DNA from: an uncultured bacterium
Lineage (GTDB): Bacteria; Patescibacteriota; Saccharimonadia; UBA4664; SCTI01
Direction: 5' to 3'
Length of the DNA stretch: 64,000 nt
Assembly: GCA_963721685.1 (NCBI GenBank)
Contig: CAVRJJ010000001.1
Span: 303,950-367,949, forward strand
Under the pieces are notes generated by a model. It was not told the origin of the DNA and did not search any database. It worked only from the letters and a program-made list of their open reading frames with translations. Positions 27,565-57,932 of the stretch are shown here, in pieces (the stretch's first letter is position 1; every line of letters starts with the position of its first letter). The position numbers and the translations under genes are program-made.

Positions 27565-29185
27565 TCAGCTATTTGCAATAATGGCTTGAATAAATGCCCC
27601 AAATAAGGCGTTTGGTTTGCCCGGCCGTGAAGTAAATTCCGGATGGAACTGACTGGCCACGAAGAAGGGATGATTTTCTAATTCAATAACTTCCACCAGC
27701 TTATTATCCGGCGAAGTACCAACAATTTTGAGGCCAGCCCCGGCTAACTGGTCGCGATACTCGTTATTAAACTCATATCGATGGCGATGGCGCTCGTTAA
27801 TTTCATTGGTGCCGTAAGCGGCGTGGGCTTTTGACCCTTCGACTAGCTTGCAGGGATAATTACCGAGCCGCATGGTTCCACCCTTGTCCACGACTTGGCG
27901 CTGCTCATCCATCAGGGCAATTACCGGGTGCTTAGTGTCGGCATTGATCTCAGTCGTGTTGGCGCTAGAATCATTTAACGCCTCGCGCGCTACCGCGATA
28001 ACCGCCACTTGCATACCTAAGCACAAACCCAGATACGGCACCTTATGCTCGCGCGCCCAGGCAGCCGCCTTAATCTTACCCTCCACGCCCCTTGAGCCAA
28101 AGCCGCCCGGTACAATAATGCCGTCCAGCCCTTCCAGCAAGCCGTTAGGACCGTCCTGTTCAACTTTCTCGGCATCAACCCAAACAATCTCCGGTCCTCG
28201 CCCGTGGGCCCAGGCAGCCGCCTTGATGGCCTCGGTTACGCTCATATAGGTATCCTCATGGTCCATATACTTGGCCACAATGCCAATCCGGACAGGAGGT
28301 TTAGCCGAATCAAAAATGATATCATTGAGTTTTTGCCAGGAGGATATGTCGGCTTTCTCGGTAGTAATGCCAAACCGTTTGCACGCATAATCAGCAATGC
28401 CGCTGGCTTCTAGGGTTAATGGTACTTGGTACACACTTTTAGCGGTGGGCAACGCCACAATTGCTTCTTTATCCAAATCGCAGAACAAGCTAATTTTGGT
28501 TAGCACATGGTCGCTGACCTCGCGCTCGGCCCGGGCAAAAATAATATCGGTCGGAACGCCAGCTGCCCTAAGGTCTCGAACGGTGTTCTGAGCCGGTTTG
28601 GTTTTTAATTCTTTGCTAGCTTCCAAGTAAGGCAAGTACACCACATGGGCGTTTAACACATTTTCAGCGCCCACCCGGCGCCGGAACTGGCGAATCGCGT
28701 CAAGAAAAGCCAGGCTTTCATAGTCACCAACGGTTCCCCCAATCTCCACAATATGCACATCAAAACCCTTACCCGCGGCTTCAATGCGGGCTTGGATGGC
28801 ATCGGTAACATGAGGAATAATTTGAACAGTTTTACCCAGGTACCGTCCGCTGCGTTCATCAGCAATTAATTGAGCGTAAATTTGACCGTTCATAACTGAG
28901 CTGCTGCGAGTTAGTTCAGCGTCCAAAAAGCGTTCATAGTGACCCAGATCTAAATCGGTTTCGGCGCCATCTTTGGTAACGAAAACCTCACCGTGTTCAG
29001 CCGGGTTAAGGGTTCCCGCGTCGGTGTTGAGGTAAGGGTCACATTTCATAATGTTAACCTTTAAGCCCGCGTGCTTTCAGGAGTGAACCAAGTGCCGCTC
29101 CGGTAATGCCTTTACCTAGTCCGGATAATACCCCGCCGGTTACAAACAGGTATTTGGTTGGACTGGTTGTTTGAGGTTCTGCCAC
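27565..29185 (-). CDS. pyrG: CTP synthase PyrG, interrupted by an apparent +1 frameshift near 29054-29062. The N-terminal 43 codons start at a GTG at 29185 with an AAGGAGA RBS; the C-terminal 494 codons follow.
   Basis: The C-terminal ORF begins ...[19 protein letters not shown] when read back in frame. The upstream fragment (V)[42 protein letters not shown] is the PyrG P-loop N-terminus in another frame. Confidence 0.85.
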
Positions 29186-29275
29186 ACCTGTCTCCTTTGG
29201 CCACCATAAGCAGTAATTACTCTATCTATACTACTGTACCAGGTTGAATGCGACAAGCCGGGCTCGCATCAATTA

Positions 29276-29716
29276 CTAGTTTACGCCGGTACTGCCAAAC
29301 CCGCCGCGGCTGGTATTTTCCAGCGAGTCCACTTCTATCACATCAACCTCTTGGGGCAAGCCCACAATAACCAACTGGGCAATGCGGGTACCGCGAGTAA
29401 CCGTTACCGGTACATCCTTGGTATTAAATAGTGCCGCGTGATATTCATCTTCATCGCCTTGGTAGTCATGGTCAATCACCCCAATACCGTTAGCAGGCAT
29501 CAGTCCCTGTTTATGCAGCGAGCTGCGGACCGCCAGCAAGCCCCAGTACCCTTCGGGCAGTTCAATGGCAACATTTAACGGGACCAGCTTAAATCCGCTC
29601 GGAGGGATTTCCGTGTCTACCCGGGCGCAAAGATCATAAGCGGCGGCACCGGCTGTTTTGCGCTCCGGCAAAGGCAGGTCGGGGTCAAAGCGCTTTACTT
29701 TTAAGCTCAGGGACAT
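29276..29716 (-). CDS. dut: dUTP diphosphatase.
   Basis: dUTPase motifs (AAYDL, GIGVIDHDYQGD, RGGFGSTG). Confidence 0.85.
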   Translation of the reverse strand: MSLSLKVKRFDPDLPLPERKTAGAAAYDLCARVDTEIPPSGFKLVPLNVAIELPEGYWGLLAVRSSLHKQGLMPANGIGVIDHDYQGDEDEYHAALFNTKDVPVTVTRGTRIAQLVIVGLPQEVDVIEVDSLENTSRGGFGSTGVN

Positions 29717-29724
29717 AGCCGGGA

Positions 29725-30892
29725 CTACCGCTTTAATTCCTGCAGCGCACGGTCCAACTGTGGATCGCGGCCAGCGCTAAAGTCCTCAGGCGTTTGTTTA
29801 ACTTCAATGTCCGGCTTGATCCCAACCTTATCAATACCCTTGCCGCTGGGAGTAAACCAATGGGCTACGGTAATTTTAACCTGGGCACCGCCATCCAACT
29901 TTATTACTTCTTGGACACTGCCTTTGCCAAAACTCTTTTCGCCAATAAGCTTGGCCTTGATGTTATCACGTAACGCCCCCGCCACAATTTCACTTGCCGA
30001 TGCGCTGCCGCCATTAATTAATACCACTACCGGCAGCCCTTCAAGCGCCCCATTACCGGTACTGGTAAGTTTCGTCTGGCTGCGGCCATTCTTGCGTTCA
30101 TCCACTACCACCTTGCCCGCCGGTACAAACTGGCTTACCACGTCTACCGCCGCCGACAAGTAGCCGCCCGGATCATTTCGGACATCCAATACAATTCCCT
30201 TTACTCCCTGGGCTTTAAGCTCGCTAGCAGCCTTATTCATTTTTTCCGAGGTGTCGTCGCCAAAGGTAGAAATTTTAATATAACCAATACCGCCTTCTTT
30301 CATGCTCCAGGTCACACTTGGTACATCAATAACCTCCCGGGTAATCGTTAAGCTCCAACGGTTGGTTGCTGCCGCGTAGTACCGTTAAGGTTACCTTGGT
30401 ACCGGCCTTGCCCCGGATCTTTGCGACCGCTTCGTCGACGGTGTAGGAGGAAGTATCTTTTTTATTAATTCCGGCAATATAATCCCCGGCACGTAAACCG
30501 GCTTTTTCAGCTGGCGCTCCGGCAATCGGGGAAATTACGGTGAGCTTGTTGTTTCGAATACCGATTTCCGCGCCAATACCCGAAAGGGTGCCGCTTAACT
30601 GGTCCTGCAAATCCTTAGCGTCTGAGGCATCCAAGTAAACCGTGTAGGGGTCCCCGGTGGAGCTTATTAAACCGGCCCGGGCTCCATCCAAGACTTTAGC
30701 GCTATCGATTTTACCGTCATACCGGCGTTGCAACAAATCGTAGGTATCGTTTAAGCTTTCAAAATCCAAAGGCTGATGCCCAATTGACCAGGTATGAGGA
30801 ATGACTTTAGGCGCGGCTTGGCCGCCTACAAAAGCAATACCGGCAACCAGTATCGGCACAATAAGCCCTAATTTACGACCGCGTCGCTCCAA
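29725..30892 (-). CDS. C-terminal processing (S41, Ctp/Prc-like) peptidase. Its PDZ domain (30326-30892) and S41 catalytic domain (29725-30315) are in different frames, a +1 frameshift near 30345-30352.
   Basis: One frame gives PDZ (GIGAEIGIRNNKLTVISPIAGAPAEKAGLRAGDYI). The other gives S41 (IGYIKISTF...VLINGGSASASEIVAGAL...EKSFGKGSVQ). Confidence 0.8.
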
Positions 30893-33930: not shown

Positions 33931-34944
33931 TTACCGGCCCTGGGCTAAGTGGCCGTACAGGGTTTCCAGTCCACCGCCATGGTTGATAACCACATGCTCG
34001 CCATATCCGGAGTTATCGGCACCGCTATAACTAACCGTACCGTTTGCCGCCGCGTAAATGGGTGCGCCAAAATAAGCGCCGAGGTCAATGCCCGTATGAA
34101 AACTGTAAGCCGCGGCCCAGTTAGGCTTACCAAACTCCTGGTTGGTGCTATACCCGCTGTCCAGCGGCCAGCGCAGCCGGCTTTGGAAATTACGAGGGTT
34201 TACCGGCGTACCGTTTTGGCGCACTTCAAAATGCAAGTGGGTGCCGGTTGAATAGCCGGTATTGCCCTGGAATCCAATTACCTCACCGGCAGCTACCCTA
34301 TCGCCTGCATGTACCACCCGGCCGCCGTAGCTGGCCAGCTTCTTCTTAAGCTCCGCTCGGGCAGCGTTTATTTGGCCAAGCTGGTTTTCCGCCTGCGCGC
34401 GGGCATAAACGAGACCGTTTTGTTGGGCAGCAAGGTTGGCGGTAAGCTTGTTTAACTCCTGAGCCTTGACTTCATGCTGCTTTTTGGCCGCAAGAATAGT
34501 GTTGACGGTTTCCGAGATCTTGTCGCTGATACTTTGTAAATACTGCTCACGGTCAACAAAGTCAGAAAGATTTTCGGCCCCAACCAGCTCTTCAAGCTTG
34601 GTTTGGTTGGTTGACTGGTACTGAGCACGCACCAGCTCACCTAGTTTGGCTTGTCCAACTGCCATCCGGGCTTTGGCATCAGCAATAGCAGCGTTGGTGT
34701 TGGCAATCTCGCGCTGCGTATGCCTAATTTGCGCTTCAACCGTGGCAATCTGATTATCAACATTATGGATATGGGCTTCGGTTTCAGCCGCGTGGACGTT
34801 GGCGGAATGTAATTGGTTGCGGGTGTCGCTCGCTTCGTTGGCGATTGCCATAGTTGGTGCTAATAGTACTAATAAGACCGTTACTGCCTTCGTCCGCATC
34901 CCCATTTGTTGCCCTCCAGCTAAGTATCCCCACAAACCTCTCAC
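33931..34944 (-). CDS. EnvC-like coiled-coil protein with an M23 (LytM) peptidase domain whose halves are in permuted order.
   Basis: Signal peptide plus coiled coil. Motif order is G.TGYSTGTHLHFE (HxH) before HTGIDL (HxxxD); the C-terminal ...YGHLAQGR is contiguous in normal M23 with VVHAGDRVAAGEVIG, which occurs about 100 aa earlier. Confidence 0.7.
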   Translation of the reverse strand: MRGLWGYLAGGQQMGMRTKAVTVLLVLLAPTMAIANEASDTRNQLHSANVHAAETEAHIHNVDNQIATVEAQIRHTQREIANTNAAIADAKARMAVGQAKLGELVRAQYQSTNQTKLEELVGAENLSDFVDREQYLQSISDKISETVNTILAAKKQHEVKAQELNKLTANLAAQQNGLVYARAQAENQLGQINAARAELKKKLASYGGRVVHAGDRVAAGEVIGFQGNTGYSTGTHLHFEVRQNGTPVNPRNFQSRLRWPLDSGYSTNQEFGKPNWAAAYSFHTGIDLGAYFGAPIYAAANGTVSYSGADNSGYGEHVVINHGGGLETLYGHLAQGR

Positions 34945-35233: not shown

Positions 35234-35250
35234 ATCACAAGGATTAAAAG

Positions 35251-36335
35251 TTAGGCACCGATTTGGCTGCTTAAGTAAGCGTCAATAAACGGTTCAAGGT
35301 CGCCATTTAATACCATTTCGGCCTGGGAGGTCTCGTGTTTGGTGCGATGATCCTTCACTTTAGTGTAAGGATGAAGCACATACGAGCGAATCTGGTTCCC
35401 CCACTCGGCGCTCATGACCGGGCCGCGCAGCTTGCTCAACTCTTCTTGTTGCTGCTCGAGCATGAGCGCCGTAAGCCGGGCTTTTAAGATAGCCATCGCC
35501 TTCTCTTTATTTTGTAGCTGCGAGCGTTCGTTTTGGATCGCCACGACGGTACCGGTTGGAACATGCGTGATCCGCACCGCCGAATCAGTGGTATTAACAC
35601 TTTGGCCGCCATGGCCGCCGGAACGGTAGACATCAATCCGCAACTCTTTTTCATCCACCTCAAACTCCTCAGGATGCTCCAACTGCGGCACCACATCCAC
35701 CAACGCAAAGCTGGTTTGGCGTAAGTTATCGGAGTTAAAGGGACTTAGCCGCACCAAACGGTGCACACCTTTTTCACTTTTGAGTTTGCCGTAAGCGTAC
35801 GCGCCGGCCACTTCAACGGTGACACTCTTAAGGCCAGCCTCTTCCCCATCGGAACGATCAATAATATCGGTGTGCCACTTTTGGCGTTCGGCAAAGCGCA
35901 GATACATCCGCAATAGCATCTCCGCCCAGTCTTGGGCGTCAGTCCCCCCGGTACCGGCGTGGATCGACAGGATTGCCGAGCTACGGTCGTGGTTGCCGGA
36001 CAGCTTCAGCTCGAACTCGCGATCGCTGTAAAGTTCCTGTAGGCGCTCAAGGTTTGCCTGCAGATCCGGTTGCATACTGACATCATTCAGCTCGGCCAGC
36101 TCGCGCGCCATAATAATATCCTGATGCAACTGGTTCCAGCCCTCGCTATGGCTTTTGAGCCCGGCCGCCTCCTGGCTGATTTTGGCGGCCGCGGTTGGAT
36201 CATCCCAAAAATTAGGTTCGGCCATCGTTTATCAAGTTCTTTTAAACGCGTTTGTTCAGCGGCTAGACCAAGCCGCTCCATCGCGGTTTCAACCCGCAGC
36301 TGTAAATCATGCAATTGTTTAGCGGTAGCGTCCAT
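35251..36335 (-). CDS. prfB: Peptide chain release factor 2, with a -1 frame discontinuity near 36226-36232 between the N-terminal 37 codons (ORF 36087..36335) and the main ORF.
   Basis: An SPF motif (VRLSPFNSDN) and GGQ are present. N-terminal fragment MDATAKQLHDLQLRVETAMERLGLAAEQTRLKELDKR joins MAEPNFWDDP only by a -1 shift. No CUU-UGA autoregulatory site is present. Confidence 0.8.
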
Positions 36336-37142: not shown

Positions 37143-37998
37143 TTATTCTCGGTTAAGCAGTTTATCGGCCAAAGCCTTCTTACTGCGGCGATAGGCTACG
37201 ACGGCGTAACCAAGGGCACCGGTACCGGCCATACCAGCCAAAGCGGCTTCAGGACCAGTCTCAGGAAGAGCAACCGGAGTTACCGGAGTCGCGGGAGGCG
37301 TTACCGGAGGGGTAGGAGGGGTTAGGAGGGGTAACCGGAGGGGTAACCGGAGCACTAACCTTAACTTTAAAGGTCACGTCCGCGATGTAGTGGAAACAGC
37401 CCGGGATTAACCCGTTGAGGCTGTCATAACCAAGCAATGTACCTTTGGTAACATCGCCCAGGATAGCACCGTTAACGGCGCCTTTACTGGCAATACGGGC
37501 AGAGCCAGGAACAACGCTGACTTTTACCTTACCATCGCTGGTAACGTTGGTGTCATCGAAGATGGTTCCGGGAGTAGCGTTCGAAGCCGAAATGTGGCCG
37601 CGAATGTTAGTGGAGCCATTAACTTCACTGGGCATATCTACCTTTAAAGTAGTGTTTTTAGCGTTCAGCTTTTCTGGATCGCTTGTCTGGGCAGGATCGG
37701 CGTTGTTGTGCACATACGCGCGAACTTCATATTCTTGGCCGGCAACTAATTTCACCGAGTCAGAATAAGCACCGCCAACTTGACGAATCGTTAAGAAGTT
37801 ACGTTCATCACCATATTGGGGGGTGTTGGTAAATGAGTTGAACTGGACATGGCCAGGACCACCACAAACACCGGTGATAGAACCACAGTTGAAGGTGGGA
37901 CGATCAGGACCAAAAGCGGCAAATGCCGTCATCGGCACCGCTAAGGTCATGGCAGCTACCGCGCTAACGGCAACTCCCTTTTTAAATTTTGCATTCAT
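37143..37998 (-). CDS. Sortase-anchored surface protein (signal peptide, Ig-like/adhesin body, PT-repeat stalk, LPETG + TM + RRSKK sorting signal). A +1 frameshift sits inside the PT-repeat stalk near 37285-37300.
   Basis: A 245-aa ORF ends ...VTPPVTPPNPSY... and an overlapping 70-aa ORF supplies ...TPPVTPPATPVTPVALPETGPEAALAGMAGTGALGYAVVAYRRSKK. The junction lies in GGTAACCGGAGG tandem repeats. Confidence 0.75.
37261..37345. repeat. Tandem GGTAACCGGAGG(G)-type repeats encoding the Pro/Thr/Val linker of the LPETG protein.
   Basis: The repeats are seen directly: gttaccggaggggtaggaggggttaggaggggtaaccggaggggtaaccggag. Confidence 0.7.
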
Positions 37999-38228: not shown

Positions 38229-39200
38229 TCACCGTGGCCGGTCGGCGCCCGAGCTCGCCGGGGGATCCCGGTTGAAGACCTTCCGCACGATGCGGAGCTT
38301 CTTCTTCGAGCACTCGAACTTGCCGGTAACCGTCACGGTCTTGTTGCCGTAGGGACGGGCGCCATGTCCACGGAAGTCACCGGCACGAATGACCCACTTG
38401 AAGGGCCTGCCGTACTGAGTGGCTCCGAACTGGCGTCCGTCGACCTTCAGCTTCACCTGCGTCAGGTAGCGGGTTCCCGCTCCCTTCAGACGAAAGGTGA
38501 TGGTTCCGCGCGGGCTCTTGGGAGCCTGATGCGGGGTCCATACGAGCTTCACGGCTCCGCGCCTGTCGACGCACTTCGTCGTCCTCTTCGGCTTCGGCTT
38601 GGCCTTGGCCTTCGGAGTTGGAGTGGTGGTCGTCGGCGGGAGGCCCGGCGGGTGCGCGATGTACGTGTTGCACGAGTTGTTCGTGCAGTAGTTGGTGCAC
38701 GAGTACTTCGTGCAGATCTCGGTGTTGCACGACTGCACCGCGCAGTTGACCTGCGTGTTGCACGAGTCGCCAACGCACTTCACCGTGTCACCCGGAGGGG
38801 GCGGCGGCGGTGGGGGCGGCGGCGGGGGCGGCGGCGGTGGTGGCGGCGGCGGCGGAGTGCCGGGCTGCTTCGCACAGACGAACGCGCCCGCGTTGTACGT
38901 GATGTTGACCTCGGGGAACGAGTAGCTCTTCTCGAAGATGAGCTCCGAGTAGTAGTTGGTCTTCATCTCGTACCGCAGCGTGGTGTTGTACTCGTTGTTC
39001 GGTCCCGGGTACGTCCCCAGCTCGTCGGCCCTCAGAAGGAGGCCGGTGCGGTTGGGGTTGCCGGCATACGTCGGCGCGGGCGACCCGTCGGGACACGTCG
39101 AGGCCATGGCCACGGGTGCCGCGAAGAGCATCATGGCAAGGGCCATGAGCACGATCGCGATCCTCGCGACCGGATTGGTCTTACGGGTACGGCGGGTCAT
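38229..39200 (-). CDS. Secreted protein with signal peptide, a 22-residue poly-proline tract, Cys-rich SCNT/CT(K/N)Y micro-repeats and a Lys-rich segment. It is the cargo of the GC-rich element.
   Basis: ATG at 39200 is preceded by an AGGAGG RBS 7 nt upstream. The N-terminus MTRRTRKTNPVARIAIVLMALAMMLFAAPVAMA is a signal peptide. The track ORF start (39437) is a read-through of the terminal repeat. Confidence 0.65.
   Translation of the reverse strand: MTRRTRKTNPVARIAIVLMALAMMLFAAPVAMASTCPDGSPAPTYAGNPNRTGLLLRADELGTYPGPNNEYNTTLRYEMKTNYYSELIFEKSYSFPEVNITYNAGAFVCAKQPGTPPPPPPPPPPPPPPPPPPPPPGDTVKCVGDSCNTQVNCAVQSCNTEICTKYSCTNYCTNNSCNTYIAHPPGLPPTTTTPTPKAKAKPKPKRTTKCVDRRGAVKLVWTPHQAPKSPRGTITFRLKGAGTRYLTQVKLKVDGRQFGATQYGRPFKWVIRAGDFRGHGARPYGNKTVTVTGKFECSKKKLRIVRKVFNRDPPASSGADRPR
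38795..38858. repeat. GGC/GGG simple-sequence repeat encoding the poly-Pro tract (reverse strand).
   Basis: ggggcggcggcggtgggggcggcggcgggggcggcggcggtggtggcggcggcggcgg. Confidence 0.8.
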
Positions 39201-39646
39201 TCCAGACCTCCTGGTCGGTAAATGGAGCAACGTGGCTCCAGAATCCCCAATGCACTCATGAGAGTACACTAGTCCTGATCGTCCACGTTGCAGGGCGATG
39301 GTCAGGATCCTACCGATGTTGCGTAATTGGCGCAGCAACATGAGCAGAGTCCTGACCATCAAATAACCGATATCCAGAAAACCTGTAGCAATAGTCGGAA
39401 TTGGGTCTTGAAGACCCATGACTATCCAGCTTGTCAAAGTTCCCTATGAAAGACCGGCTGGTTTCCACCTCACCTACGTCTCGCAGAGTAATGACACGTA
39501 ATATATCATGCTTATGCAATTTTGTCAAGGAGTTGATGGTAAAATGTCTATGATTTATGATCAGATTAGGCGATCTGGAGATTATTGCTTATGCAAAATA
39601 CCGAATTATCTATTGGGAATATGCCTAAAAGATAGCGCTTTAGGCG

Positions 39647-40549
39647 TTATGTCTTAAATAGAAAGCTTTGGAGTATCTGATAATACTCCTCTGGCATCGC
39701 GTGAACAGACAGATGCTTGTAGTCGTACTCCGGGTCAGGGAACTCAAAGCGCTCCAGTTCAGGGTAATTACCAGTCCCCCGCGCCATCACCATGGCCTCC
39801 CGGCACTCCTGTATCTCCCCCACGCACTCGAAGGGCTTATGTCCTTCTATTCCGAGTAACTCGCGATAGGTGTGATCCAGATCGGGTTTCTCAAAAAGGT
39901 TTTCGCCATTAAATAGTTCCATCAGATCAACCTTGGGTGCAAACGGAGCAAATATGAGGTACACAAAAGCGCATTTCGGACATTCGCCACACCAGGTAAG
40001 CCCCTCTTTATGACTAAGGCTAAAGTTACGGTTACAGGAGCTAAATGTACCCTGGTACTGCTCAAGCCAGTTGGTGGTAAAAAGCTCGGCAATCCGCAGT
40101 TCACTTAAGGGGCGCAAAAAAGAAAAATAGTGAATATCGGGAGATATGTTTAATCTCACGTACTCCTGAAAATCGCGCTCAAACTCCAGGGTTTTTGAAT
40201 ACTGGTGGTTTACCGATATCTCCTGATAATCCAGGTTGCCTTCACCGGCTGAAGATTCATTGGAGAGGGCTATATGCCGGTTTCCGGTTAAAATGGCGCT
40301 CACCACGGAAGCGAACGCCAGATAGGCCGAGATGGGAACGTGGCCGTTATAGGCACCTTTGGCGTTAAGATCCTTCAGCTTGGAGTCAAGTGTACGTTCA
40401 ACCTGAAGATGCGACTTCCCGATCTGATCAATCTGGGGTTTAAGTTGTTCGGCATGGTTAATGGTCCAGCTGGTGAACTGCTGATTGGAGGATGCCAGGA
40501 TTCCGGCAGTGGTTAACGAGTCCTTACCGCCGCCAATCGGTACTATCAA
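39647..40549 (-). CDS. QueC-family PP-loop ATP pyrophosphatase-like protein with a CGECPKC zinc ribbon and a roughly 80-aa C-terminal extension. It is a lone gene with a TTG or unresolved start.
   Basis: PP-loop GGGKDS is present. Compare GHVPISAYLAFASV with QueC VPGRNLVFLSFA, and SSCNRNF...TWCGECPKC with QueC C...CGECPAC. It lies in AT-rich DNA with no queD/queE/queF nearby. Confidence 0.55.
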   Translation of the reverse strand: MIVPIGGGKDSLTTAGILASSNQQFTSWTINHAEQLKPQIDQIGKSHLQVERTLDSKLKDLNAKGAYNGHVPISAYLAFASVVSAILTGNRHIALSNESSAGEGNLDYQEISVNHQYSKTLEFERDFQEYVRLNISPDIHYFSFLRPLSELRIAELFTTNWLEQYQGTFSSCNRNFSLSHKEGLTWCGECPKCAFVYLIFAPFAPKVDLMELFNGENLFEKPDLDHTYRELLGIEGHKPFECVGEIQECREAMVMARGTGNYPELERFEFPDPEYDYKHLSVHAMPEEYYQILQSFLFKT

Positions 40550-40669
40550 CCCATTGCCATAGGAGGATTGCGGATTGGACTGGATCTTCGGGTCTACTGG
40601 AAAGGAGCAAGCTTATCGGGACTTAGCTGGTTTTTGACTAGAAACTCCCCTAGTCCTTGTCGGTAGAGC

Positions 40670-40945
40670 TTATTGAAGAAACTTGGCTTGCTGCTGGTTC
40701 AATCCCTGGCCCTTAATGATGATCTGGGGCGCCAGATAAGCCTTAAAGTAGGAAATGCCGCCGACCAACCATAACCCGCGTACGGCGTTTTCGAGGACTA
40801 TAGGATTAAGGCCGTAGTAAGGATCCCCGTCAGCTTTAAGTGTTTCCGTAAAGTGCAACTCTCCATCATAGGAGTAGCGTAAATGTAAGGTTTGCTCTGT
40901 CTGGTTAAAGTCGTACCCCTCAAAAATAAAGGCTCTGATAGGTTT
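40670..40945 (-). CDS. Small ORF (about 91 codons) in the same frame as, and immediately after, the murD stop codon. It has no ATG and a possible TTG start at 40858.
   Basis: The frame stays open from the murD TGA onward: KPIRAFIFEGYDFNQTEQTLHLRYSYDGELHFTETLKADGDPYYGLNPIVLENAVRGLWLVGGISYFKAYLAPQIIIKGQGLNQQQAKFLQ*. Confidence 0.25.
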   Translation of the reverse strand, partial: KPIRAFIFEGYDFNQTEQTLHLRYSYDGELHFTETLKADGDPYYGLNPIVLENAVRGLWLVGGISYFKAYLAPQIIIKGQGLNQQQAKFLQ

Positions 40946-42250
40946 TCACGACGTTTTCACAAGGTCGTGGACGGCTGCCTTGAAATGGTCGCCGCGCTCA
41001 CTAAAGTTCTTAAACATATCAAAGCTGGAGGTTCCCGGTGAAAGCAGCACCACGTCACCTGGTTTGGCTTGTTTACGCGCCAGCTTCACGATATCGCTCA
41101 TCTTCGAAGGGCCTAAGCTGTAGTTGCTGTAGTCCGCCTTGTCTAGGGCTTCAGTGATCTGATGCGAAACTGCCCCTATCACGATAACGTTTCGAACGTT
41201 AGCTATGCCTACCTCGCGGGCGATACCATCATAGCTGAGGCCTTTGTCGAATCCTCCTAAAATTAGTACTTTAGGCTCAGTAAAGGCCTGGATAGCGGCG
41301 ATGGTAGCACCAGGACTGGAAGAGTAGGAATCGTTGATGTAGGTGGCTTCATCAATAACCGCCACCTTCTCTAGCCGGTGCTCCAACCCAGCGAAATGCC
41401 TAATAGCCTGCTTTATCGGATGGGGATCCTTAATGATTGGCCAAACCGCGGTGATGGCGGCGCAGACATTATCCCAGTTATGACGGCCAGCCAGGGCAAT
41501 ATCTGTGACTGAGCAGATAGTGGTGTCCCCTATTTTTACCGTATCGCCATCTATAAAGGCGCCATCGGTGGAGTTATAGGCGGTTTGATCAGCCGGGGCG
41601 CCTAAGCCGCTTTGCAGAGAATACAGGTTGCAGGCATTGAACACCGCGCGGTCACCCGGTTTCTGGTGGGTAAAGATCATTTGCTTGGCTCTCAAGTACT
41701 CATGCATATCCGGATGCCAATTCAGATGGTCCGGAGCGATCATCAGCATTACCGCCACGTGGGGGCTGTATCTGATATCAATCAATTGGAAACTTGATAG
41801 CTCCAAAACCACCCAATCTTCTGGTTTAACCTGGTCTAAAAAGTCCAGAGGTGGGTGGCCAATGTTGCCCCCCAGATGGACGGTGCGTCCGGACGCTTCA
41901 AGCATCTTAGCAATCAAGGAGGCGGTAGTGCCCTTACCTTTAGAGCCGGTCACCCCAATTACCTTGGCCGGACAGTTCCCAAGAAACTCATTGGTCCCCG
42001 AGGTAATTTTAGCTGTGTCCAGATTGGGGTTGGCCTGGAGGAGCGCTTGGGGGCGGATACCCGGAGTGCGGACAACCAGATCATATTGATCCAAGCTCTT
42101 GAGATAATCAGCTCCCAAATGGGAGTCGACGTCTTTTGGCAACATTTGCTCAGTGTTTTCATCATGAATGCAGATCTGATGCCCCAGATCGTGCCAATAG
42201 GTGTACGCGGACTTACCTTCCACCCCATAGCCAACAATCGCAACTTTCAT
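40946..42250 (-). CDS. murD: UDP-N-acetylmuramoylalanine--D-glutamate ligase MurD.
   Basis: Mur ligase motifs (GVTGSKGKGTT, DxSSFQL). Confidence 0.9.
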   Translation of the reverse strand: MKVAIVGYGVEGKSAYTYWHDLGHQICIHDENTEQMLPKDVDSHLGADYLKSLDQYDLVVRTPGIRPQALLQANPNLDTAKITSGTNEFLGNCPAKVIGVTGSKGKGTTASLIAKMLEASGRTVHLGGNIGHPPLDFLDQVKPEDWVVLELSSFQLIDIRYSPHVAVMLMIAPDHLNWHPDMHEYLRAKQMIFTHQKPGDRAVFNACNLYSLQSGLGAPADQTAYNSTDGAFIDGDTVKIGDTTICSVTDIALAGRHNWDNVCAAITAVWPIIKDPHPIKQAIRHFAGLEHRLEKVAVIDEATYINDSYSSSPGATIAAIQAFTEPKVLILGGFDKGLSYDGIAREVGIANVRNVIVIGAVSHQITEALDKADYSNYSLGPSKMSDIVKLARKQAKPGDVVLLSPGTSSFDMFKNFSERGDHFKAAVHDLVKTS

Positions 42251-46695: not shown

Positions 46696-47926
46696 TCAGC
46701 CGTACTTCGCCATGCCCGCAGGGCATTGTATTTCAGAGCAACCGCACCACATAGATATGCGGGTGGGCCTCCAGCTCTGTGACCAACTCGTCCGGTACGC
46801 GTTCGTTGAGATCGAAGACCGAGTAGGCCAACTCGTCCTTTGAGACGTTCCCCATGTCCTCGATGTTGAGCTCCGTACTTGGCGATGATCGCGGTGAGCT
46901 CGCTCAGTATGCCTTCCGTCGTTGGCGTGGACGATGGTCAGCCGATGCTCGGAAGCCCGCGACAGAACGAGATCGGGCAGGTTGACAGCATTCCTGACGT
47001 TGCCATGTTCGGCGAAATCGATCAACTGTCGCGCAGCCATGACCGAACAGGCCGCTTCCGCCTCGGCGGTGGAACCACCGATGTGCGGCGAGACCACCAC
47101 GCAGGCATGACCCGCTAGTGCCTGCATCCGGTAGGTCGGTGAGATACCTCCCCACCTTGCCAGCATTGAGCGCGTCGATCAGTGGTTCCGTCTGAACCAA
47201 CTGTGCCCGAGCCGTGTTCACGAGCATCACGCCCGTCTTCATGAGCTCGAACTCGCGCGGGCCAATCATGGCGTCGGTCCGCGGTCCGCCAGGTACGTGC
47301 AGCGACACCACGTCGCTGCGGCGAAGCAACTCGCTCGAGGCTGTCAACGAGTTCAACGCCCACGTACTCGAGGAACTCGCGAGCATCAGCGCTGATCCCC
47401 GGGTCGTACCCGAGGACGTTCATACGCAATCCGGCATGAGCTCGAATGGCCACCCATCGCCCGATATTGCCGAGACCGACAACGCCAAGCGTCCGATGGC
47501 GCAGCTCGAAACCGGCAAAACGCTTCTTGTCTTTTTCTGCGCTGGACCGGAAAGCCGTCGTCAGTGCCGTGTTCGGCGACATAGGCGAAGGCTTCGGCGA
47601 GCTTGCGCGCCCCGATCGTAATGAGTCCCAGCGTGTGTTCCACCACTCCGTTGGCGTTAGCGCCGGGGGTGTTTGGACGCCACCACACCTCGCTGGCTCA
47701 AGACAGCGAGAGGGAGGTTGTCGACACCGGTTCCAGCGCGGGCAAGCGCGATGACGCTTGCGGGCACCATCTCCGGCACCTCAAGGTATCCGCGATATGA
47801 GCGCAGCAGGATCAACAGCGGGTTAGGTTCCCGCTGGTCAGGATCGCAGGTGTACCCCGCGTCCCTCAGCAACTGCAAGCCGTCACGACCGATTTCATTG
47901 TGAAGACGTACGATCATTCCCCTCAC
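46696..47926 (-). pseudogene. Decayed D-3-phosphoglycerate dehydrogenase / D-isomer 2-hydroxyacid dehydrogenase (serA-like) gene in at least 5 frame-fragments on GC-rich (about 62%) DNA.
   Basis: Overlapping minus ORFs carry a PGDH N-terminal domain, a GxGxxG NAD site (VGLGNIG), ESDVVSLHVP...LMK...LVNTAR and HIGGSTAEA motifs in different frames. Confidence 0.65.
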
Positions 47927-48464: not shown

Positions 48465-50018
48465 CTAACCCTCCAACTTTAAACGTTTAACTAACCAATC
48501 CCGGTCGAGGCTTGCTAGGAACCAGCCAGCTTTGGGGCCGTATTCTTTACCTAAGATAACACGATAGAGCGCCGCGAACCCCTCCCGAGGGCCAACTTCC
48601 GCTTTCTCGGCAGCGGCGTAGATGAGCAAATGCATTTCCCGGCCGTTTAGGTCGCCTTCAAAGGTTTGGATTGCGTCGGCTAGCTTTGCGAGAAATGTTT
48701 TTTGGACAGCGCCCAATTCTGCTCGCGGAAGCTTTTCCTGAACACTAAATTTAACCACATCGGGCGCGTAATGCTCCAGCCAGTTATGGACGAACGGCAA
48801 CTCTTGAAGAATAATATCCTTCTCGGTTTTGACAGTATCGCCATAGCCGGTGCGCTCCAGCGTGAGTAAGGTTTGCTCGGGATCACCCTGGGCCGCCTGG
48901 TAGACCTGTACTAAATGCTTAAAGGAAACACTGGATATTACCCGGTCGGTTTTACCGGCCACCGCGAACTCATAGGCGTCCCGGAACGGGTGGGTGGAGT
49001 CGTTCTGAGCCGCCGCGAACTCATCAATGAGGTTGAAGAGGCCTAAGCCTGTAGCAAAAATAAGGAGCTTTTCTGGACGCGAACGAACAATAAAATAGCG
49101 CAAAATTTCAACCGGCATAACCTTAAGCACCTCTTTGGGTGTAATAACATTCCCAGCCGACTTGCTAATTTTTTTAGTTTGACCGGCTTGGTTAATAAAC
49201 TCATACGGGACCGGCATAGGGGCTTGACCGCCAAAAACTTGCTCAACAATCGCCCTTCCGGTGTCATAGGATCCACCTTTTGTGGCGTGATCGCGCCCAA
49301 ATGGCTCAACATTTACGCCCCACATCCACCACCTGGCCGGCCAGTCGATACGCCAGTCCAACTTTACCCTGCCTTCTGCGTAAGAAAGCTCCCCCTCCTT
49401 GCCGTCAAGGGCGCGGTAGGTAACAATTTGCCGTTCTGTATCGTGCCCGCTATAAATCCATTCGTTAAGACGACCGGAATCACTGAGCAGCTGAACCGGT
49501 CCCCAGTCGGCCGACAACTTGCGATGACTAACGGTTTCAATAATCTCGCGGATTTCTTGTGTTTGCTTAAGGACTTTCTCGATAGCGGCGGTGTAACGAT
49601 GTTCTTTCCCGTAGGTGGTAGATGCGCGATATGATTCATCAGGCTCAAAACCGGTTGCTTGCGTGGCCGCGACCAAGTCATTATAAAAATAATCAGCGTA
49701 AGAACTACCGGGCTTAGGACTCTCTGCCAAATAAAGTGGCTTACCCAGTTCCGACTGAATCGTTTCTGGAAGGTCTGCCGGAATCTTACGCAATACATCG
49801 AAATCGTCAACAAAATCAAGATGAGTAGCTTCGCGGCCACGCTCCCGCAGGGCCCACGTTAGGGCGCTAGCAGTGGCAATTTCTCGAATAGTTCCGATGT
49901 GATAAACACCGGAAGGTGAATGTCCACTAGATACCGTAATAGTACCTTCCGGATATTTGGAAACAATATCGTCAGCGGCTAGATCAAGCCAATATTTACT
50001 GCTGGATTCGCTAGTCAT
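48465..50018 (-). CDS. lysK: Lysine--tRNA ligase, class I.
   Basis: HIGH-type motif SGHSPSGVYHIGTIRE and KMSKS-type KISKSAGN. Confidence 0.8.
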   Translation of the reverse strand: MTSESSSKYWLDLAADDIVSKYPEGTITVSSGHSPSGVYHIGTIREIATASALTWALRERGREATHLDFVDDFDVLRKIPADLPETIQSELGKPLYLAESPKPGSSYADYFYNDLVAATQATGFEPDESYRASTTYGKEHRYTAAIEKVLKQTQEIREIIETVSHRKLSADWGPVQLLSDSGRLNEWIYSGHDTERQIVTYRALDGKEGELSYAEGRVKLDWRIDWPARWWMWGVNVEPFGRDHATKGGSYDTGRAIVEQVFGGQAPMPVPYEFINQAGQTKKISKSAGNVITPKEVLKVMPVEILRYFIVRSRPEKLLIFATGLGLFNLIDEFAAAQNDSTHPFRDAYEFAVAGKTDRVISSVSFKHLVQVYQAAQGDPEQTLLTLERTGYGDTVKTEKDIILQELPFVHNWLEHYAPDVVKFSVQEKLPRAELGAVQKTFLAKLADAIQTFEGDLNGREMHLLIYAAAEKAEVGPREGFAALYRVILGKEYGPKAGWFLASLDRDWLVKRLKLEG

Positions 50019-50708: not shown

Positions 50709-52744
50709 CTACTTTACGCAGCCGCCAGGACGGCTGAAACACCACTGCAGTGTTTCGCGGACAGCCGGCGCGGCATATTGGGCGCCTTCGCCAGAATTCT
50801 GGATTAGAACTACCATTTCAATTTGAGGATCATCGTAGGGCGCAAAAGCCGTAAACCACGCGTGTGGCTTACGTTTTCCGTTGGGATCGGTTTCAGCCGT
50901 GCCGGTTTTTGCGGCCACCGCCACTGGCACCGATTCTTCAATTTTGCAGCACGCGGTACCGTAAGGCCGGTTCACCACCTCGCGCATAGCCCGTTTAACA
51001 AGGTTTAAATGGCTGGCCTCAATAAAGTTCTCATCCTGAATTTTTACTTGTGCCGAGCGGGTAACCACACCATTATCGCCAGTCAATTCCTTAAAGAAAT
51101 GCGGCTCGATGACTTTTCCCCCGTTCGCGATCGCGGCCTCAGCAACCGCCATTTGCAGTGGTGAGGCCAGCAAGTCGCCTTGCCCAATCGAAATATTATA
51201 GGTATCACCCACGGTCCAAGGTTCGCCGCTGAACTTTTGTTTCCACTCGGGCGTAGGAATCCGTCCGGCGGTCTTTTCCGGAAGGTCAATGGCGGGCAGC
51301 TTGCCTAAGGCCAAATTTATTGTAGTAGGTGGTTAGCTTGGAGACACCGAGACCGGCAATATTCCCATAACCGCCGCCGACCGTGTAAAAGAAGACATCC
51401 GAACTGACAGCGATGGCTTTTGATAAGTTTACCGCGCCATGCCCGCCCGGATCATACGAACGGTAGGTATATTTAATGGACGGGTCATACTTATTGGTTA
51501 TAACAATTGAACCAGTATCGTTAACGGTGGTATTGGGGCTAATTGCCCGCTCCTGAAGCGCCGCCGAACCAATCAGCGGTTTAATAATCGATCCAACGGG
51601 ATATGCTCCGGCAATGGCTTTGTTGAAAAGTGGTTGCGCGGCATTCTTCACTAGCTTTTGGTAATCTTCCTGCCCAATACCCCGCGCGAACAGGTTGTTA
51701 TCGTACCCCGGCAGGTTAACCACCGCCAATACTTCGCCGTTTTTTGGGTTAAGGGCAACTCCTGAAGCCTGGGACGCGCCGCTGGCCTGCATTTGGGCCT
51801 TAATGGCATCGGTAAGCTTATGCTGCAGCTCCATATCAATAGTTAAGGTTAAATTAGCCCCGGCTTTGGCCGGGCGTGAAGCCAGCAGCTTTATAGGCCG
51901 ACCAGCGGCATCAACTTCGGTCTGTTCAATCCCATTCTGGCCTTTTAGCAAATGCTCATACTGCTTCTCGATCCCCAGTTTTCCAATAAAATCGGTGGAC
52001 TTATAGTTAGGGTCGGCATCAAGGTCAGCCTGGCTCACCCGGCCGGTGTAACCCAGTATGGCCGAAAGCGTATCGTCGTTATACTGGCGGATTGGGTTGG
52101 TATCCAAGCTAAATCCCGGGAGCGAACCTGAGGCCTGGTCAAAGGCTAGCCATCGGTCCCGTTCAACATTACTTGCCACTAGACGCGCCTGAGGGTTCCG
52201 TAAGCAAGCAGCCAGTGCAACTTCAGGCTTTTTACGGCCGGCTATTTCGGCCGCTTGGCACTCTCCTTCTGCCTTAGCCGCTACGTCAGACGCGGGAACC
52301 CCCAGAAAGCCCTCCTACCGTGCTATAGAGCCGCTGCCGGGCCGCAGAATCGGTTTGGGGCAGTAGACTTGGTGTAACGGTAATGTCCACACTGGCTAAG
52401 TTTTCCGCCAAGACTGCTTTGTTACGGTCATAGATTATACCGCGCGGGGCCCGGGTGACCTTTTCGCGCAAGCGGTTGCCGTCCGCCAATCCCAAATTGC
52501 GCTGGCCTTGAACCAGCTGAAGGTGCGCGAGTTGGGCAATCAGAATTAAGGCCCCCAACACAACCAGCACAGCTACTATTACTAGCGGGCGCTTGCTCGT
52601 GGGGGTTTCAATTACACCGGCCGCGGCATCGGCCGGCAATATCGCGTCCGCCCACTGCTCGTGGCCCCCTTGGTCGCGTTTGATAGTAACCCGATCCTTT
52701 TGGGGATGTGCCTCGCCGCCATACCCAAACAACGATTTGCTCAC
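50709..52744 (-). CDS. mrdA: Penicillin-binding protein 2 (elongasome transpeptidase) split into three frame-fragments (52286-52744, 51286-52179, 50709-51314). There are two +1 frameshifts, near 52298-52311 and 51294-51300.
   Basis: Fragments carry the N-terminal TM/pedestal, the middle region (SIIKP = SxxK) and the C-terminus (KTGTAE) in order. The middle fragment's frame is open across the first stop, and the third fragment starts at TTG inside the second. Confidence 0.8.
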
Positions 52745-54047: not shown

Positions 54048-55114
54048 TAATACCTCCGGGCGTTGGACTTAGTCTGGTTAGGCAGGAGAATTTCTTTAAG
54101 CGAATCCAAGTCTTCTAAAACCAGCCCTGTCCCTCTGGCCACCGCGGTAAGAGGGTCGGCAGCCACGTGAACCGGCATCCGGCATTCGCGCTGGATGAGG
54201 GTGTCCAAACCTTTAAGCAGCGCTCCTCCTCCGGCTAAGACCATTCCCCGATGCATAATATCGGCTACTAACTCCGGCGGTGTCTCTTCAATCGTTACCT
54301 TGATAGCATCAATAATTTCACGTACGCTCCGGCTCAACGCTTCACGAATCTGGTCAGATGTAACATTAATTTGCTTTGGCAGGCCGGTAACCATGTCGCG
54401 TCCCCGCATTAGCACATTCCGGGGCTGGTCGGTTTGGGCGGTTGGAAACGCCGAGCCAACCGCGATTTTAATCTGCTCCGCGGTACGTTCGCCAATGCTT
54501 AGGCTGAACTCGTCGCGGGCATACTTTACAATATCCTCGCTCAGTTCATCGCCGGCTACCCGGATACTGCGGGCAGCCACAATCCCTCCGAGCGAGATCA
54601 CCGCGACTTCACTGGTTCCGCCGCCAATATCGATTATCATTGAGCCGGCCGCGTCCTGCACCGGCAGGCGTGACCCAATCGCGGCCGCCATCGGTTCTTC
54701 AATTAAAAAGGTTTGGCGGGCGCCCGAGTTACTGGCAGCATCCTCCACGGCCCGGCGTTCTACCTCTGTCACACCAGAAGGGATGCCAATAACTACCCGA
54801 GGCCGCGCCAATAACTTAAAACGCTGCTTGTGTACCTTATTAATGAAATAGCGCAGCATTTGTTCGGTAACTTCGAAGTCACTCACCACCCCATCAACTA
54901 ACGGCCGGGTGGCAACAATGCTAGCTGGGGTTTTACCAACCATGCGTTTGGCCTCTTCGCCAATCGCTAAAATTTGGTTGGTTTTGGTGTTAATCGCCAC
55001 CACGCTGGGCTCATTTATAACAATTCCCTGGCCGCGCACGTACACCAAGGTATTGGCGGTACCTAGATCGATACCGATATCGTGGGAAAACTGTCCCAGC
55101 AACTGATCAAACAC
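54047..55114 (-). CDS. mreB: Rod shape-determining protein MreB (actin homologue).
   Basis: DIGIDLGTANTLVYV phosphate-1 motif and the full actin fold. Confidence 0.92.
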   Translation of the reverse strand: MFDQLLGQFSHDIGIDLGTANTLVYVRGQGIVINEPSVVAINTKTNQILAIGEEAKRMVGKTPASIVATRPLVDGVVSDFEVTEQMLRYFINKVHKQRFKLLARPRVVIGIPSGVTEVERRAVEDAASNSGARQTFLIEEPMAAAIGSRLPVQDAAGSMIIDIGGGTSEVAVISLGGIVAARSIRVAGDELSEDIVKYARDEFSLSIGERTAEQIKIAVGSAFPTAQTDQPRNVLMRGRDMVTGLPKQINVTSDQIREALSRSVREIIDAIKVTIEETPPELVADIMHRGMVLAGGGALLKGLDTLIQRECRMPVHVAADPLTAVARGTGLVLEDLDSLKEILLPNQTKSNARRY

Positions 55115-55425
55115 CTATAACCCTGAGCATTACCATCTTGATCTAGTTTACAGGAGTAGCTGTCCTCCGCCAAGGCCACAATATGTGTTCAGTGCCGCTG
55201 ACGATGGTTATGCCAGATGAGCTGAATAAAGCTTGTGTTCAAAATAATCGCAACGTGGACTGGGCGACTGGAAATTATTGCGGTCGACTCCCGGGCTGAC
55301 TTTAATTTGGAAAAGACGTACAAAATTTACCATAACAAGCCCAAAAAAGATGGTAACTTTTGTACGCAAATCAATATCTATGAGAGTGTACGGAAAATAA
55401 GGGTGGGGTGGCCAGCCCCGGCGCT

Positions 55426-55899
55426 TTAGCGCCGGAGCCAACCGCGGACAGCCTGAACGACAGGGATGATCAACAGCGGCCGCTTCGGAGGCAACAACCA
55501 CAGTTGCCGCTTGAAGTGGCTGGTTGCCGCCCGCTTGTCGCGCCGGATCACGTTGGCCTCCCTCCAAAGGAGGGCAAGGACGGAGAGCGCCCCCAGGTAG
55601 GCCGATAGGAAGTGAGCGAACCGAATACGCCTGCGAAAATGCAGGATGACGCACGCCAGGACGCCAAAGAGTGCTGAGGCAGCAACCTCCCACCACTCAC
55701 CGATCATCTCGATAAGCATGGTCATCAACCCGAACACCGCCCCGAGAAAAAGAGCGACGGCCCTGGAGGGACTCTTGACCAGAGCCAATCCGATCATCGC
55801 CAAGAGCGTCAGAGGGGGCAAGCTGGTCCAGTAGCTCCAACGCCAGTTGATCTGCTCTGGCGTTACCTGACAGCGGACCGAAGGTGACAAAGTAGCCAT
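55426..55899 (-). CDS. Hypothetical polytopic membrane protein encoded on a GC-rich (about 62%) patch.
   Basis: About four predicted TM helices. GC composition is atypical and the surrounding overlapping ORFs look spurious. Confidence 0.35.
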   Translation of the reverse strand: MATLSPSVRCQVTPEQINWRWSYWTSLPPLTLLAMIGLALVKSPSRAVALFLGAVFGLMTMLIEMIGEWWEVAASALFGVLACVILHFRRRIRFAHFLSAYLGALSVLALLWREANVIRRDKRAATSHFKRQLWLLPPKRPLLIIPVVQAVRGWLRR

Positions 55900-55971
55900 G
55901 ACTTGTCCTTCATGTCGAAGTGTTCCCCGGATTAGGGGCTATTCGGTTATATCATAATTGCTTTGTGGCCG

Positions 55972-57210
55972 CTACAGCTGGAGGTTATCGAGCGGCATGA
56001 AGCTGGAATCGGCTTCAGTGCGCTTTTTGAACTCGACCGAGCCTTTTTCAAGTGTTTTGGGGCTAAGCGTTAACCGTATGGGACAACCCATCAGGTCGGC
56101 GTCGGCAAATTTAGCACCGGCCGATTCATCGCGATCATCATAGAGGACTTCGATACCCCGCTTCTGGAGATCGGCATACAGCTTATTGGCGGCAGCCACA
56201 ACCTTTTCGTCAGTACCAATTTGAACTAAGTAAACTTTAGCGGGGGCGATGGCTTCCGGCCACACCATACCCTTTTCGTCAGCATAGCGCTCAACCACCA
56301 CGCCCATCACCCTGGCCGGGCCAATGCCGTAGCTGCCCATCACCACCGGCTTTTGTTTGCCATCCTCATCCTGAAACACCAATCCAAGCGGCTGGCTTTT
56401 GCTGGTCCCCAGGTTGAAAATATTGCCTACCTCGGCGGCTTTGGTTTTTTCCAGTTTTTCTTTATCTAAACCTAAATCAGCAATCAACTTATCACTATAG
56501 ACTTCTTCGTTAATTGCGATTCGCTTATCATGGTCAATATAAACAATATCCTCCCCGGCATCGGTAACGGTTTGAAACTCATGACTGAATTCGGCAAACG
56601 CCCCGCCGGAGGCATAAGTGAGATAGGTCCACTCCCCTAGCCCTAGCCGGTCAAAAATCCTGGTATAGGCCGCCTTGGCCTTTTCATAAAATTCAGCGTG
56701 CTCTTCATCTGACCGGCTAAACGAGTATAGATCCTTCATGATAAATTCCCGAGTGCGCATAATCCCCGATTTTGCCCTGGTTTCATTGCGCAGTTTGGTT
56801 TGGAACTGATAAGCGTAGGCGGGTAAATCACGGTAGCTGGAAATATGCTCGCGCATCAGTTCAGTTAGCGGTTCTTCATGGCTCCAGGCCAGGCCCACAT
56901 CAGTGCCGTTCTTTAATTGGGACTTAAACCACACGTCAACTTGTGCGTCATCCCACCGGTTGGTGCGCTCCCACAGTTCTTTGCGCTGCAAGCTGCTCAT
57001 CGTTAGTTCTTGTCCGCCCAGCGCATTAATCTCTTCACGGATAATACCAATAATTTTATTCAGTACCCGCAATCCCAGCGGCAGAAAAACATACACTCCG
57101 GCTGAATCTTTATGGATAAATCCGGCGCGGATCAGCAGCTGCGCGTTGGTGGCAGCTTCGTCCTTAGGGGCATCGCGGCGGGTTTTTGTGAAAAGTTTTG
57201 ATAGTCGCAT
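55972..57210 (-). CDS. proS: Proline--tRNA ligase (archaeal/eukaryote-like short type).
   Basis: Class II motifs with the ProRS C-terminal Zn-binding-like domain; true start is the ATG at 57210 (MRLSKLF...). Confidence 0.85.
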   Translation of the reverse strand: MRLSKLFTKTRRDAPKDEAATNAQLLIRAGFIHKDSAGVYVFLPLGLRVLNKIIGIIREEINALGGQELTMSSLQRKELWERTNRWDDAQVDVWFKSQLKNGTDVGLAWSHEEPLTELMREHISSYRDLPAYAYQFQTKLRNETRAKSGIMRTREFIMKDLYSFSRSDEEHAEFYEKAKAAYTRIFDRLGLGEWTYLTYASGGAFAEFSHEFQTVTDAGEDIVYIDHDKRIAINEEVYSDKLIADLGLDKEKLEKTKAAEVGNIFNLGTSKSQPLGLVFQDEDGKQKPVVMGSYGIGPARVMGVVVERYADEKGMVWPEAIAPAKVYLVQIGTDEKVVAAANKLYADLQKRGIEVLYDDRDESAGAKFADADLMGCPIRLTLSPKTLEKGSVEFKKRTEADSSFMPLDNLQL

Positions 57211-57211
57211 G

Positions 57212-57932
57212 TTACTTTTGGTTAAGTGCCATGTAGGCAAGATAGTTATTAAGCATATGAATGCCGATGCCAGGGATGGTTGAACCCAACCGGACATACA
57301 AAAAACATAATAGCAGCCCAAGGATGAAGGTGTACACGCTTACATTTAATTGCAGGTGCGCCACCGCGAACAATAAACTTGAAACGACGGCGCCGAGCAC
57401 CACCCCAAAGCGCTTGGCAAAAGCCGGAAACATAAAGCCGCGAAAGACAATCTCTTCGATAATAGGAGGAATAATGACCAGCGCCCACAAGCTAAGCAGG
57501 GAAGGGACTTTTTGTAAACTCATTGGTTTGGGGTTCTGCCGGATCAAATGCCGGATAGATCAGTTTTACCAGTATATCGGCGGCGAAAACCAACAATCCA
57601 AAACTTATAAATAGTAAAAACACATATAAAAGCGCCTTTGCAATTGAAAATGACTTAAGCCCCAGCGCCGAGACGCCCACCTTATATTTGCGCATAAAAT
57701 AGCCAATGATCACCAGCGAACCTACCACATCTACCACCACAAGCGCAAAGGCGGCGAAAGGGCTACCAGCATCAAGCGCATTCAGGAACGTGTTAAGACC
57801 AGGGAAATAGATTGAGGCCGCTCCTATGCCAACCAGCAACAGGACGGGCAACAGCACCCAGGGCACAATAAAGAGGAGCAGCGCCTGGCCCAACGTCCAT
57901 GGAGCTGATCGTATCGCGGCCGAATACGACAC
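57212..57932 (-). CDS. CPBP-family (CAAX) intramembrane metalloprotease in two frame-fragments; +1 frameshift near 57505-57515 (A5 run).
   Basis: The N-fragment holds TM helices. The C-fragment carries EExxxR (IIEEIVFRG) and FxxxH (FAVAHL) motifs, and the fragments overlap by 56 nt. Confidence 0.7.

Follow-up and report, generated by a model that had tools for sequence, protein, structure and literature searches.

Are the interrupted genes of this locus broken in the organism, rescued during its translation, or broken only in the assembly? The window, i.e., the 64,000-nucleotide stretch of contig CAVRJJ010000001.1 analysed here (from an uncultured bacterium of the Saccharimonadia), carries between 27 and 58 kb a run of minus-strand housekeeping genes, several of which are split by single-base changes of reading frame. 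The affected genes include the essential pyrG, prfB and mrdA. The initial annotation had noted that some of the junctions coincide with in-frame CTT codons, and had weighed +1 ribosomal frameshifting against sequencing or assembly error, its default explanation. We conclude that the 16 frame changes we find are very probably single-base consensus errors in the contig of this metagenome-assembled genome (MAG), rather than features of the genome or of its translation. The split genes are very probably an assembly artefact with an unusual signature, which probably reflects strain polymorphism, and almost certainly not a new kind of ribosomal frameshifting.

Frame changes in the window and in independent sequences

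We located the junctions by three-frame translation and by frameshift-aware alignment of proteins to DNA (own implementation). To choose the repairs, all single-base options were scored against reference proteins and the best-scoring one was kept. There are 16 single-base frame changes in nine genes: 14 insertions (+1) and 2 deletions (-1). The seven junctions reported by the initial annotation, in pyrG, ctp (the S41 protease), mrdA (twice), and the genes of the CPBP protease, the LPETG protein and RF2 (prfB), are real and were recovered by both translation and alignment, but the list was incomplete, as nine further events lie in a serA-like gene (six) and a PP-loop-like gene (three). The junctions are as follows.

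27565..29185, minus strand: pyrG (CTP synthase); one extra base within 29055-29068, minus-strand sequence CGGGCTTAAAGG
29725..30892, minus strand: ctp (S41 C-terminal processing protease); extra base in 30347-30352, GAG CTT A ACG, with equivalent deletions along CTTAA
35251..36335, minus strand: prfB (RF2); missing base at about 36224-36232, GAT AAA CG_ ATG GCC
37146..37998, minus strand: LPETG-anchored surface protein; extra base at about 37318-37334, CCT CCT A ACC
39647..40948, minus strand: PP-loop-like conserved protein (GGGKDS motif, homologues of about 430-450 amino acids); three events
about 40935-40945, minus strand: PP-loop-like gene, event 1; probable +1 at the gene start, TAT C AGA
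about 40678-40690, minus strand: PP-loop-like gene, event 2; +1, AAG TTT C TTC
about 40598-40612, minus strand: PP-loop-like gene, event 3; -1, GCT CC_ TTT CCA
46733..47917, minus strand: serA-like D-3-phosphoglycerate dehydrogenase; six +1 events near 47674, 47556, 47336, 47128, 46920 and 46871
50709..52744, minus strand: mrdA (PBP2), junction 1; +1 at 52303-52308, GGG CTT T CTG
50709..52744, minus strand: mrdA (PBP2), junction 2; +1 at 51303-51310, GGC CTT A GGC
57212..57932, minus strand: CPBP-family intramembrane protease; extra base in 57501-57508, AGT CCC T TCC

The zero-frame strings that had drawn attention to CTT (GGG-CTT-AAA-GGT-TAA, GAG-CTT-AAC-GAT, GGC-CTT-AGG-CAA and GGG-CTT-TCT-GGG) are all four present in the sequence, and a stop does follow in the old frame 3-8 codons downstream. 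The precise site of an indel is less easily fixed. In pyrG, CGC GGG CTT AAA G in the zero frame and CGG GGC TTA AAG in the +1 frame both read R-G-L-K, so that 12 consecutive bases are equivalent and protein evidence does not fix the position of the indel. The base missing from prfB is either the third base of a CGN codon or one A of an A run. Two earlier statements on sites need to be corrected. The CPBP shift had been placed in an A5 run, but the zero frame is continuous through this run and the indel lies just 3' of it, in CCCTT. Every site had also been considered explainable as a T/A homopolymer insertion, which does not hold for the event at the start of the PP-loop-like gene (PPa, TAT C AGA) or for the serA-like events serA3, serA5 and serA6, none of which is a run extension in its best-scoring repair.

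All 16 events fall within 27.5-58 kb, and there are none in the remaining 33 kb of the window, where all genes are full length as judged by Pfam coverage and by collinearity with two relatives. The chance of such confinement is 7e-6 when counted by events and 1e-3 when counted by genes. The ratio of insertions to deletions (14:2) departs from 1:1 (p = 0.002). Since real bacterial pseudogenes are deletion-biased, this excess runs in the opposite direction to that of gene decay and counts in favour of an artefact. In the frameshift-aware alignments, the correct frames are free of nonsense codons and of larger deletions.

As a conspecific reference we used Logan contigs, assembled independently from run ERR12037361 and found by exact-sequence look-up. 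SecA (859 amino acids), Dut and the NYN protein are identical between the window and these contigs, and the conspecific proteins are overall 99-100% identical to those of the window. Both mrdA sites, as well as the CPBP, LPETG and prfB junctions, are uninterrupted there, i.e., five events in four genes are absent. The comparable proteins thus show 5 frameshifts against about 5 amino-acid substitutions. Frameshifts about as numerous as substitutions are implausible for natural divergence. The conspecific MrdA (P0006, 677 amino acids) runs across both junctions and differs from the window at four residues, which cluster at 402-506 around junction 2 (residue 479). The conspecific CPBP protein (P0010, 239 amino acids) is intact and reads EFTKSP/SLLSLW at the junction, and the LPETG protein (P0012, 281 amino acids) is uninterrupted. 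The LPETG junction adjoins a 9-nucleotide difference in the TPP repeats of the Pro/Thr-rich stalk (37300-37360), of which the window has one unit more than the conspecific copy; this extra unit reflects either a polymorphism in repeat number or an artefact of collapse. The first prfB open reading frame (ORF) of the window has 82 codons, against at least 215 open codons from the same start in the ERR12037361 contig. The native prfB lacks the classical CUU-UGA programmed frameshift site, its N-terminus being continuous through the usual position. The prfA gene (RF1) is intact at 62668-63732 on the plus strand.

Orthologues served as the reference for pyrG and ctp. In the nearest relatives both genes are unbroken and the gene order is the same, with protein identities of 85-90% and about 75%, respectively. 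In DNA alignments, pyrG has exactly one base more than in the relatives L085 and L086 (intact orthologues have 538 amino acids), and ctp has one base more than in L085, where the orthologue is also intact (388 amino acids). More generally, the nearest named relatives of the window proteins are Candidatus Saccharimonadia or Saccharimonadales MAGs. The sequences searched yielded no conspecific copy of the serA-like gene, the PP-loop-like gene, or the pyrG and ctp junctions. A search of genome contigs with the repaired PyrG returned, among the matches listed, only Firmicutes and Chloroflexi at 50-54% identity, and a search of metagenome contigs with the intact MrdA returned only relatives at 32-35% identity. 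The indels are thus present in the window and absent both from the conspecific assembly (mrdA twice, CPBP, LPETG and prfB) and from the orthologues (pyrG and ctp). The orthologue comparison that had been proposed as a check therefore supports the default explanation of sequencing or assembly error, through intact conspecific genes and orthologues that are one base shorter.

In-frame CTT codons and ribosomal frameshifting

An in-frame CTT followed by a skipped base fits 4 of the 14 +1 events, and the other 10 have no usable in-frame CTT. The initial annotation had regarded four in-frame CTT out of four as beyond chance. This does not prove robust, as the true denominator is 14 and the codon was picked post hoc; once corrected for this choice, p ranges from 0.004 to 0.37. 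CTT occurs 19 times per 1000 codons in the intact genes of the window, and 2.5-4.5% of random insertions would admit a reading as CTT plus a skipped base under an exact match of the repaired protein, or 6-8% with one residue allowed to differ. Among 12 random events, one codon or another is shared by at least 4 with a probability of 0.004-0.04 under the exact rule and 0.16-0.37 under one-residue tolerance (this simulation, with 12 events, predates the identification of two further +1 events). By a looser criterion, 8 of the 10 junctions in native genes have an in-frame CTT no more than 3-4 codons away, against about 14% expected per 8-codon stretch. These eight include both -1 events, for which a +1 slip offers no explanation. 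No in-frame CTT is present at any of the six serA junctions. At the DNA level, 9 of the 16 junctions have a CTT within 8 nucleotides in either direction. Enrichment in the 12 events that the initial annotation did not use is not significant (4-5 of 12, against an estimated expectation of about 24%).

Programmed or tolerated +1 frameshifting at CUU-N, or four-base decoding by a Leu tRNA, would allow full-length proteins to be expressed from the split genes. As in prfB-type sites (CUU-UGA-C with an upstream Shine-Dalgarno (SD)-like element) and in Ty1, the old frame offers CTT and then a base to skip, A or T, at four junctions. One of them, mrdA junction 2, is literally the Ty1 heptamer CUU-AGG-C, and AGG is an uncommon codon in these genes (3.1 per 1000). 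AGGAGG precedes the CTT-T of mrdA junction 1 by 1 nucleotide, and GGAG directly precedes the CTT of ctp (0 nucleotides). CTT is found near most native-gene junctions, as described above, and the CPBP site reads CCC-U, a known +1-prone Pro context. However, the sites are not conserved in the conspecific assembly, from which the mrdA heptamer is absent, nor in the orthologues. In the A site, AAA (30 per 1000) and AAC (22) are common codons, TCT (4.6) is the remaining one besides AGG, and there is no stop, unlike in prfB. The upstream element is inconsistent, with only CGCGGG at pyrG and only TTTGGC at mrdA junction 2; the 3' end of the 16S rRNA is not in the window. In-frame CTT-A/T occurs at 137 sites in intact genes of the window and is not avoided. 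The lineage's own prfB lacks the classical signal, as noted above, most events have no usable CTT, and two are shifts in the opposite direction. A Ty1-type shift would also call for a Leu tRNA (UAG anticodon) that can re-pair on UUA and for a scarce tRNA decoding AGG; the window contains no tRNA genes. We regard +1 frameshifting at CUU, which had been raised as the alternative to error, as very improbable.

Just as improbable is the broader version in which the insertions are real and are read through by +1 decoding at both CUU-N and CCY-N, by a four-base Leu or Pro tRNA or by a frameshift-prone ribosome. If true, such read-through would keep pyrG, mrdA and ctp functional despite their frameshift mutations. 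Transcriptional slippage, as known from the poly-A tracts of endosymbionts, involves A/T tracts of about nine bases or more, whereas the longest run touching a junction has 5 nucleotides, and homology excludes even this run as the site.

Origin of the errors

If the frame changes are consensus errors, the kind of error that produced them may be read from the bases involved. The contig could have been built from noisy long reads of a mixture of near-identical strains. At polymorphic sites, mostly synonymous and at third codon positions, the consensus would then write both alleles in tandem, producing a 1-nucleotide insertion. At other polymorphic sites it would write neither allele, producing a 1-nucleotide deletion. 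The confinement to one 30-kb stretch would presumably mark where the co-assembled strains differ. A consensus engine that breaks a mismatch down into an insertion plus a deletion could set the two alleles one behind the other. The insertions can be read in this way as follows.

pyrG: alleles AA[A/G] GTT, window AAAGGTT
ctp: alleles CT[T/A] ACG, window CTTAACG
mrdA junction 2: alleles CT[T/A] GGC, window CTTAGGC
mrdA junction 1: alleles CTT [T/C]TG, window CTTTCTG
CPBP: alleles CC[C/T] TCC, window CCCTTCC
LPETG: alleles CC[T/A] ACC, window CCTAACC
PP-loop-like gene, start: alleles TA[T/C] AGA, window TATCAGA
PP-loop-like gene, 40.68 kb: alleles TT[T/C] TTC, window TTTCTTC
serA-like events: alleles TC[C/A] AAC and GG[A/G] CTC, window TCCAAAC and GGAGCTC

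The best repair is readable as tandem synonymous alleles in 10 of the 14 insertions and in all 8 of those in native genes, against 39-44% in simulated random insertions (p = 0.0014 for native genes and 0.014-0.036 for all insertions). For each of the two deletions, the lost base can be assigned to the third position of a codon with four-fold degeneracy (CG_ ATG in prfB, CC_ TTT in the PP-loop-like gene). Moreover, the amino-acid differences between MrdA and its conspecific counterpart form a single cluster, and mrdA junction 2 falls within it. A tandem-allele consensus would account for the excess of insertions, for the insertions outside homopolymers and for the confinement to one stretch. 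It would also give the look of a codon followed by a skipped base, which had been taken for slippage at CTT, because strain single-nucleotide polymorphisms concentrate at degenerate third positions, such as those of the Leu codons CTN.

A precedent exists in long-read assembly, where collapsed alleles lead to indel errors at nearby allelic variants and variable repeats (PMC8445201). In the collapsed Trypanosoma brucei assembly described there, the indels sit at such variants and repeats, and the frameshifts vanish once the alleles are separated. The parallels here are junctions at amino-acid differences (mrdA), a repeat copy-number difference (LPETG) and a majority of insertions readable as tandem alleles. 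The T. brucei case is a diploid eukaryote with the reads in hand, whereas the bacterial strain mixture is here deduced rather than observed. Granted that the frame changes are artefacts, we consider the tandem-allele consensus of a strain mixture to be their most likely origin, at roughly an even chance.

Ordinary random or homopolymer miscalls of a low-coverage long-read assembly, unrelated to polymorphism, are a somewhat less probable source of the same artefact. Frameshifting indels are well documented in nanopore data, and Saccharibacteria genomes sequenced in this way are known to suffer from them (PMC9600527). As in other nanopore and PacBio assemblies and MAGs with such errors, conserved genes are split here by single bases that are absent from independent assemblies, essential and non-essential genes are affected alike, and the damage is patchy along the contig. 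Extension of a run of 1-3 nucleotides would describe nine of the 14 insertions, run contraction would describe both deletions (A4 to A3; T4 to T3 or C3 to C2), and a local drop in coverage could explain both the patchiness and the six serA-like events. The textbook version of these errors, with long homopolymers miscalled, nonetheless fits poorly, contrary to the earlier error model. The affected 30 kb hold 124 runs of at least 5 bases (30 of them of at least 6), none of which is required by any event, and at least four insertions (PPa, serA3, serA5 and serA6) are not run extensions in their best repair. Nanopore consensus tends towards deletions, so an insertion excess of 14:2 would be unusual for it. 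The events also co-locate with strain differences in mrdA and in the LPETG gene. Among candidates of a more specific kind, a basecalling error at a methylation motif was set aside: several contexts resemble WAAGSYC on the plus strand, but the sample is too small, and the errors are insertions, not substitutions.

Real frameshift mutations, i.e., genes inactivated by decay or relaxed selection in an episymbiont, perhaps at least in the serA-like gene, are improbable as an explanation for the whole. Saccharimonadia genomes are reduced, and the avoidance of long homopolymers would suit true mutations. Yet three of the genes (pyrG, prfB and mrdA) are essential, and RF1 cannot stand in for RF2 at UGA, a stop codon that this genome uses. 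A strain whose proteins are 99-100% identical carries the genes uninterrupted. The clean correct frames, the insertion bias opposite to the usual one and the restriction to one 30-kb stretch speak against decay as well. Pseudogenisation of the native genes is thus unlikely. The serA-like gene differs from them. It lies in an island of 60-63% GC, compared with about 51% in the rest, and was probably acquired horizontally. Its best-matching homologue shows 54% identity; the following ones, several of them named as Gammaproteobacteria, show about 42-45%. Its presence is unusual because Saccharimonadia generally lack amino-acid biosynthesis. With its composition, its distant homologues and no conspecific copy found, it could be a decaying acquired gene.

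Several points weigh against an assembly artefact of the kind proposed here. It is possible that the serA-like gene, alone, is a genuine pseudogene. Four of its six events misfit the tandem-allele reading (best repair, where the reference is 54% identical), and the statistical support for that reading is moderate overall. The sparing of long homopolymers, unlike in classical long-read errors, would make this an artefact of a less usual kind. The comparison with the ERR12037361 contigs is at the protein level, and pyrG, ctp, the PP-loop-like gene and the serA-like gene were compared with relatives at 54-90% identity, without a conspecific copy. For the source assembly, the type of reads, the mixture of strains and the way in which the consensus arose are themselves inferred.

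The frame changes have no biological weight, as the organism most likely has these genes in unbroken form. Their importance is for data quality: a deposited Saccharimonadia MAG would carry at least 16 gene-breaking errors in 30 kb. Such errors would inflate pseudogene counts, shrink predicted proteins and could pass for recoding, and fragments of the split genes are already in public protein collections. The ORF fragments of the window are recorded there from one contig of 405,478 bp, deposited at NCBI and ENA. The signature of clustered, non-homopolymer insertions at synonymous sites may help to recognise artefacts of strain collapse, which polishing focused on homopolymers would miss.

Other genes of the window

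The gene content of the affected stretch is the following.

27-58 kb, minus strand: pyrG, dut, ctp, CHAP protein, ftsX/E, M23 peptidase, prfB, NYN protein
27-58 kb, minus strand (further genes): LPETG protein, murD, secA, hpf, serS, lysK, greA
27-58 kb, minus strand (rest): mrdA, mreDCB, class II aminoacyl-tRNA synthetase, CPBP protease, rseP

The PP-loop-like protein has no Pfam match. An ORF resembling the S component of ECF transporters (55426-55899, minus strand, within 55100-55960) has a weak Pfam match to profile positions 29-113 of 169. It is followed by about 300 nucleotides without a clear coding frame, which may represent a seventeenth frame error or a truncated gene.

The M23 peptidase gene (33931-34944, minus strand) has a permuted catalytic domain, in which the C-terminal half (HLHFE) precedes the N-terminal half (HTGIDL). 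The ORF stops in mid-domain (YGHLAQGR, then the stop), and joining its end to the earlier segment that runs from RVVHAGDRV to HLHFEV would give a canonical domain. The permuted order reflects either a genuine circular permutation or else a rearrangement or misassembly at this locus.

A second island of high GC (58-65%), at 38229-39437, has long ORFs open on both strands. One encodes a putative secreted protein without a Pfam match, whose start resembles a signal peptide. The protein also has about 21 prolines in a row, a stretch rich in Cys, Asn and Thr, and a C-terminal domain of basic character.

Two further genes appear intact. A HerA/TrwB-like ATPase of 943 amino acids is encoded at 2600-5431 on the plus strand. 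The lysyl-tRNA synthetase (48465-50018, minus strand) is a class I enzyme (PF01921), instead of the class II enzyme usual in Bacteria.

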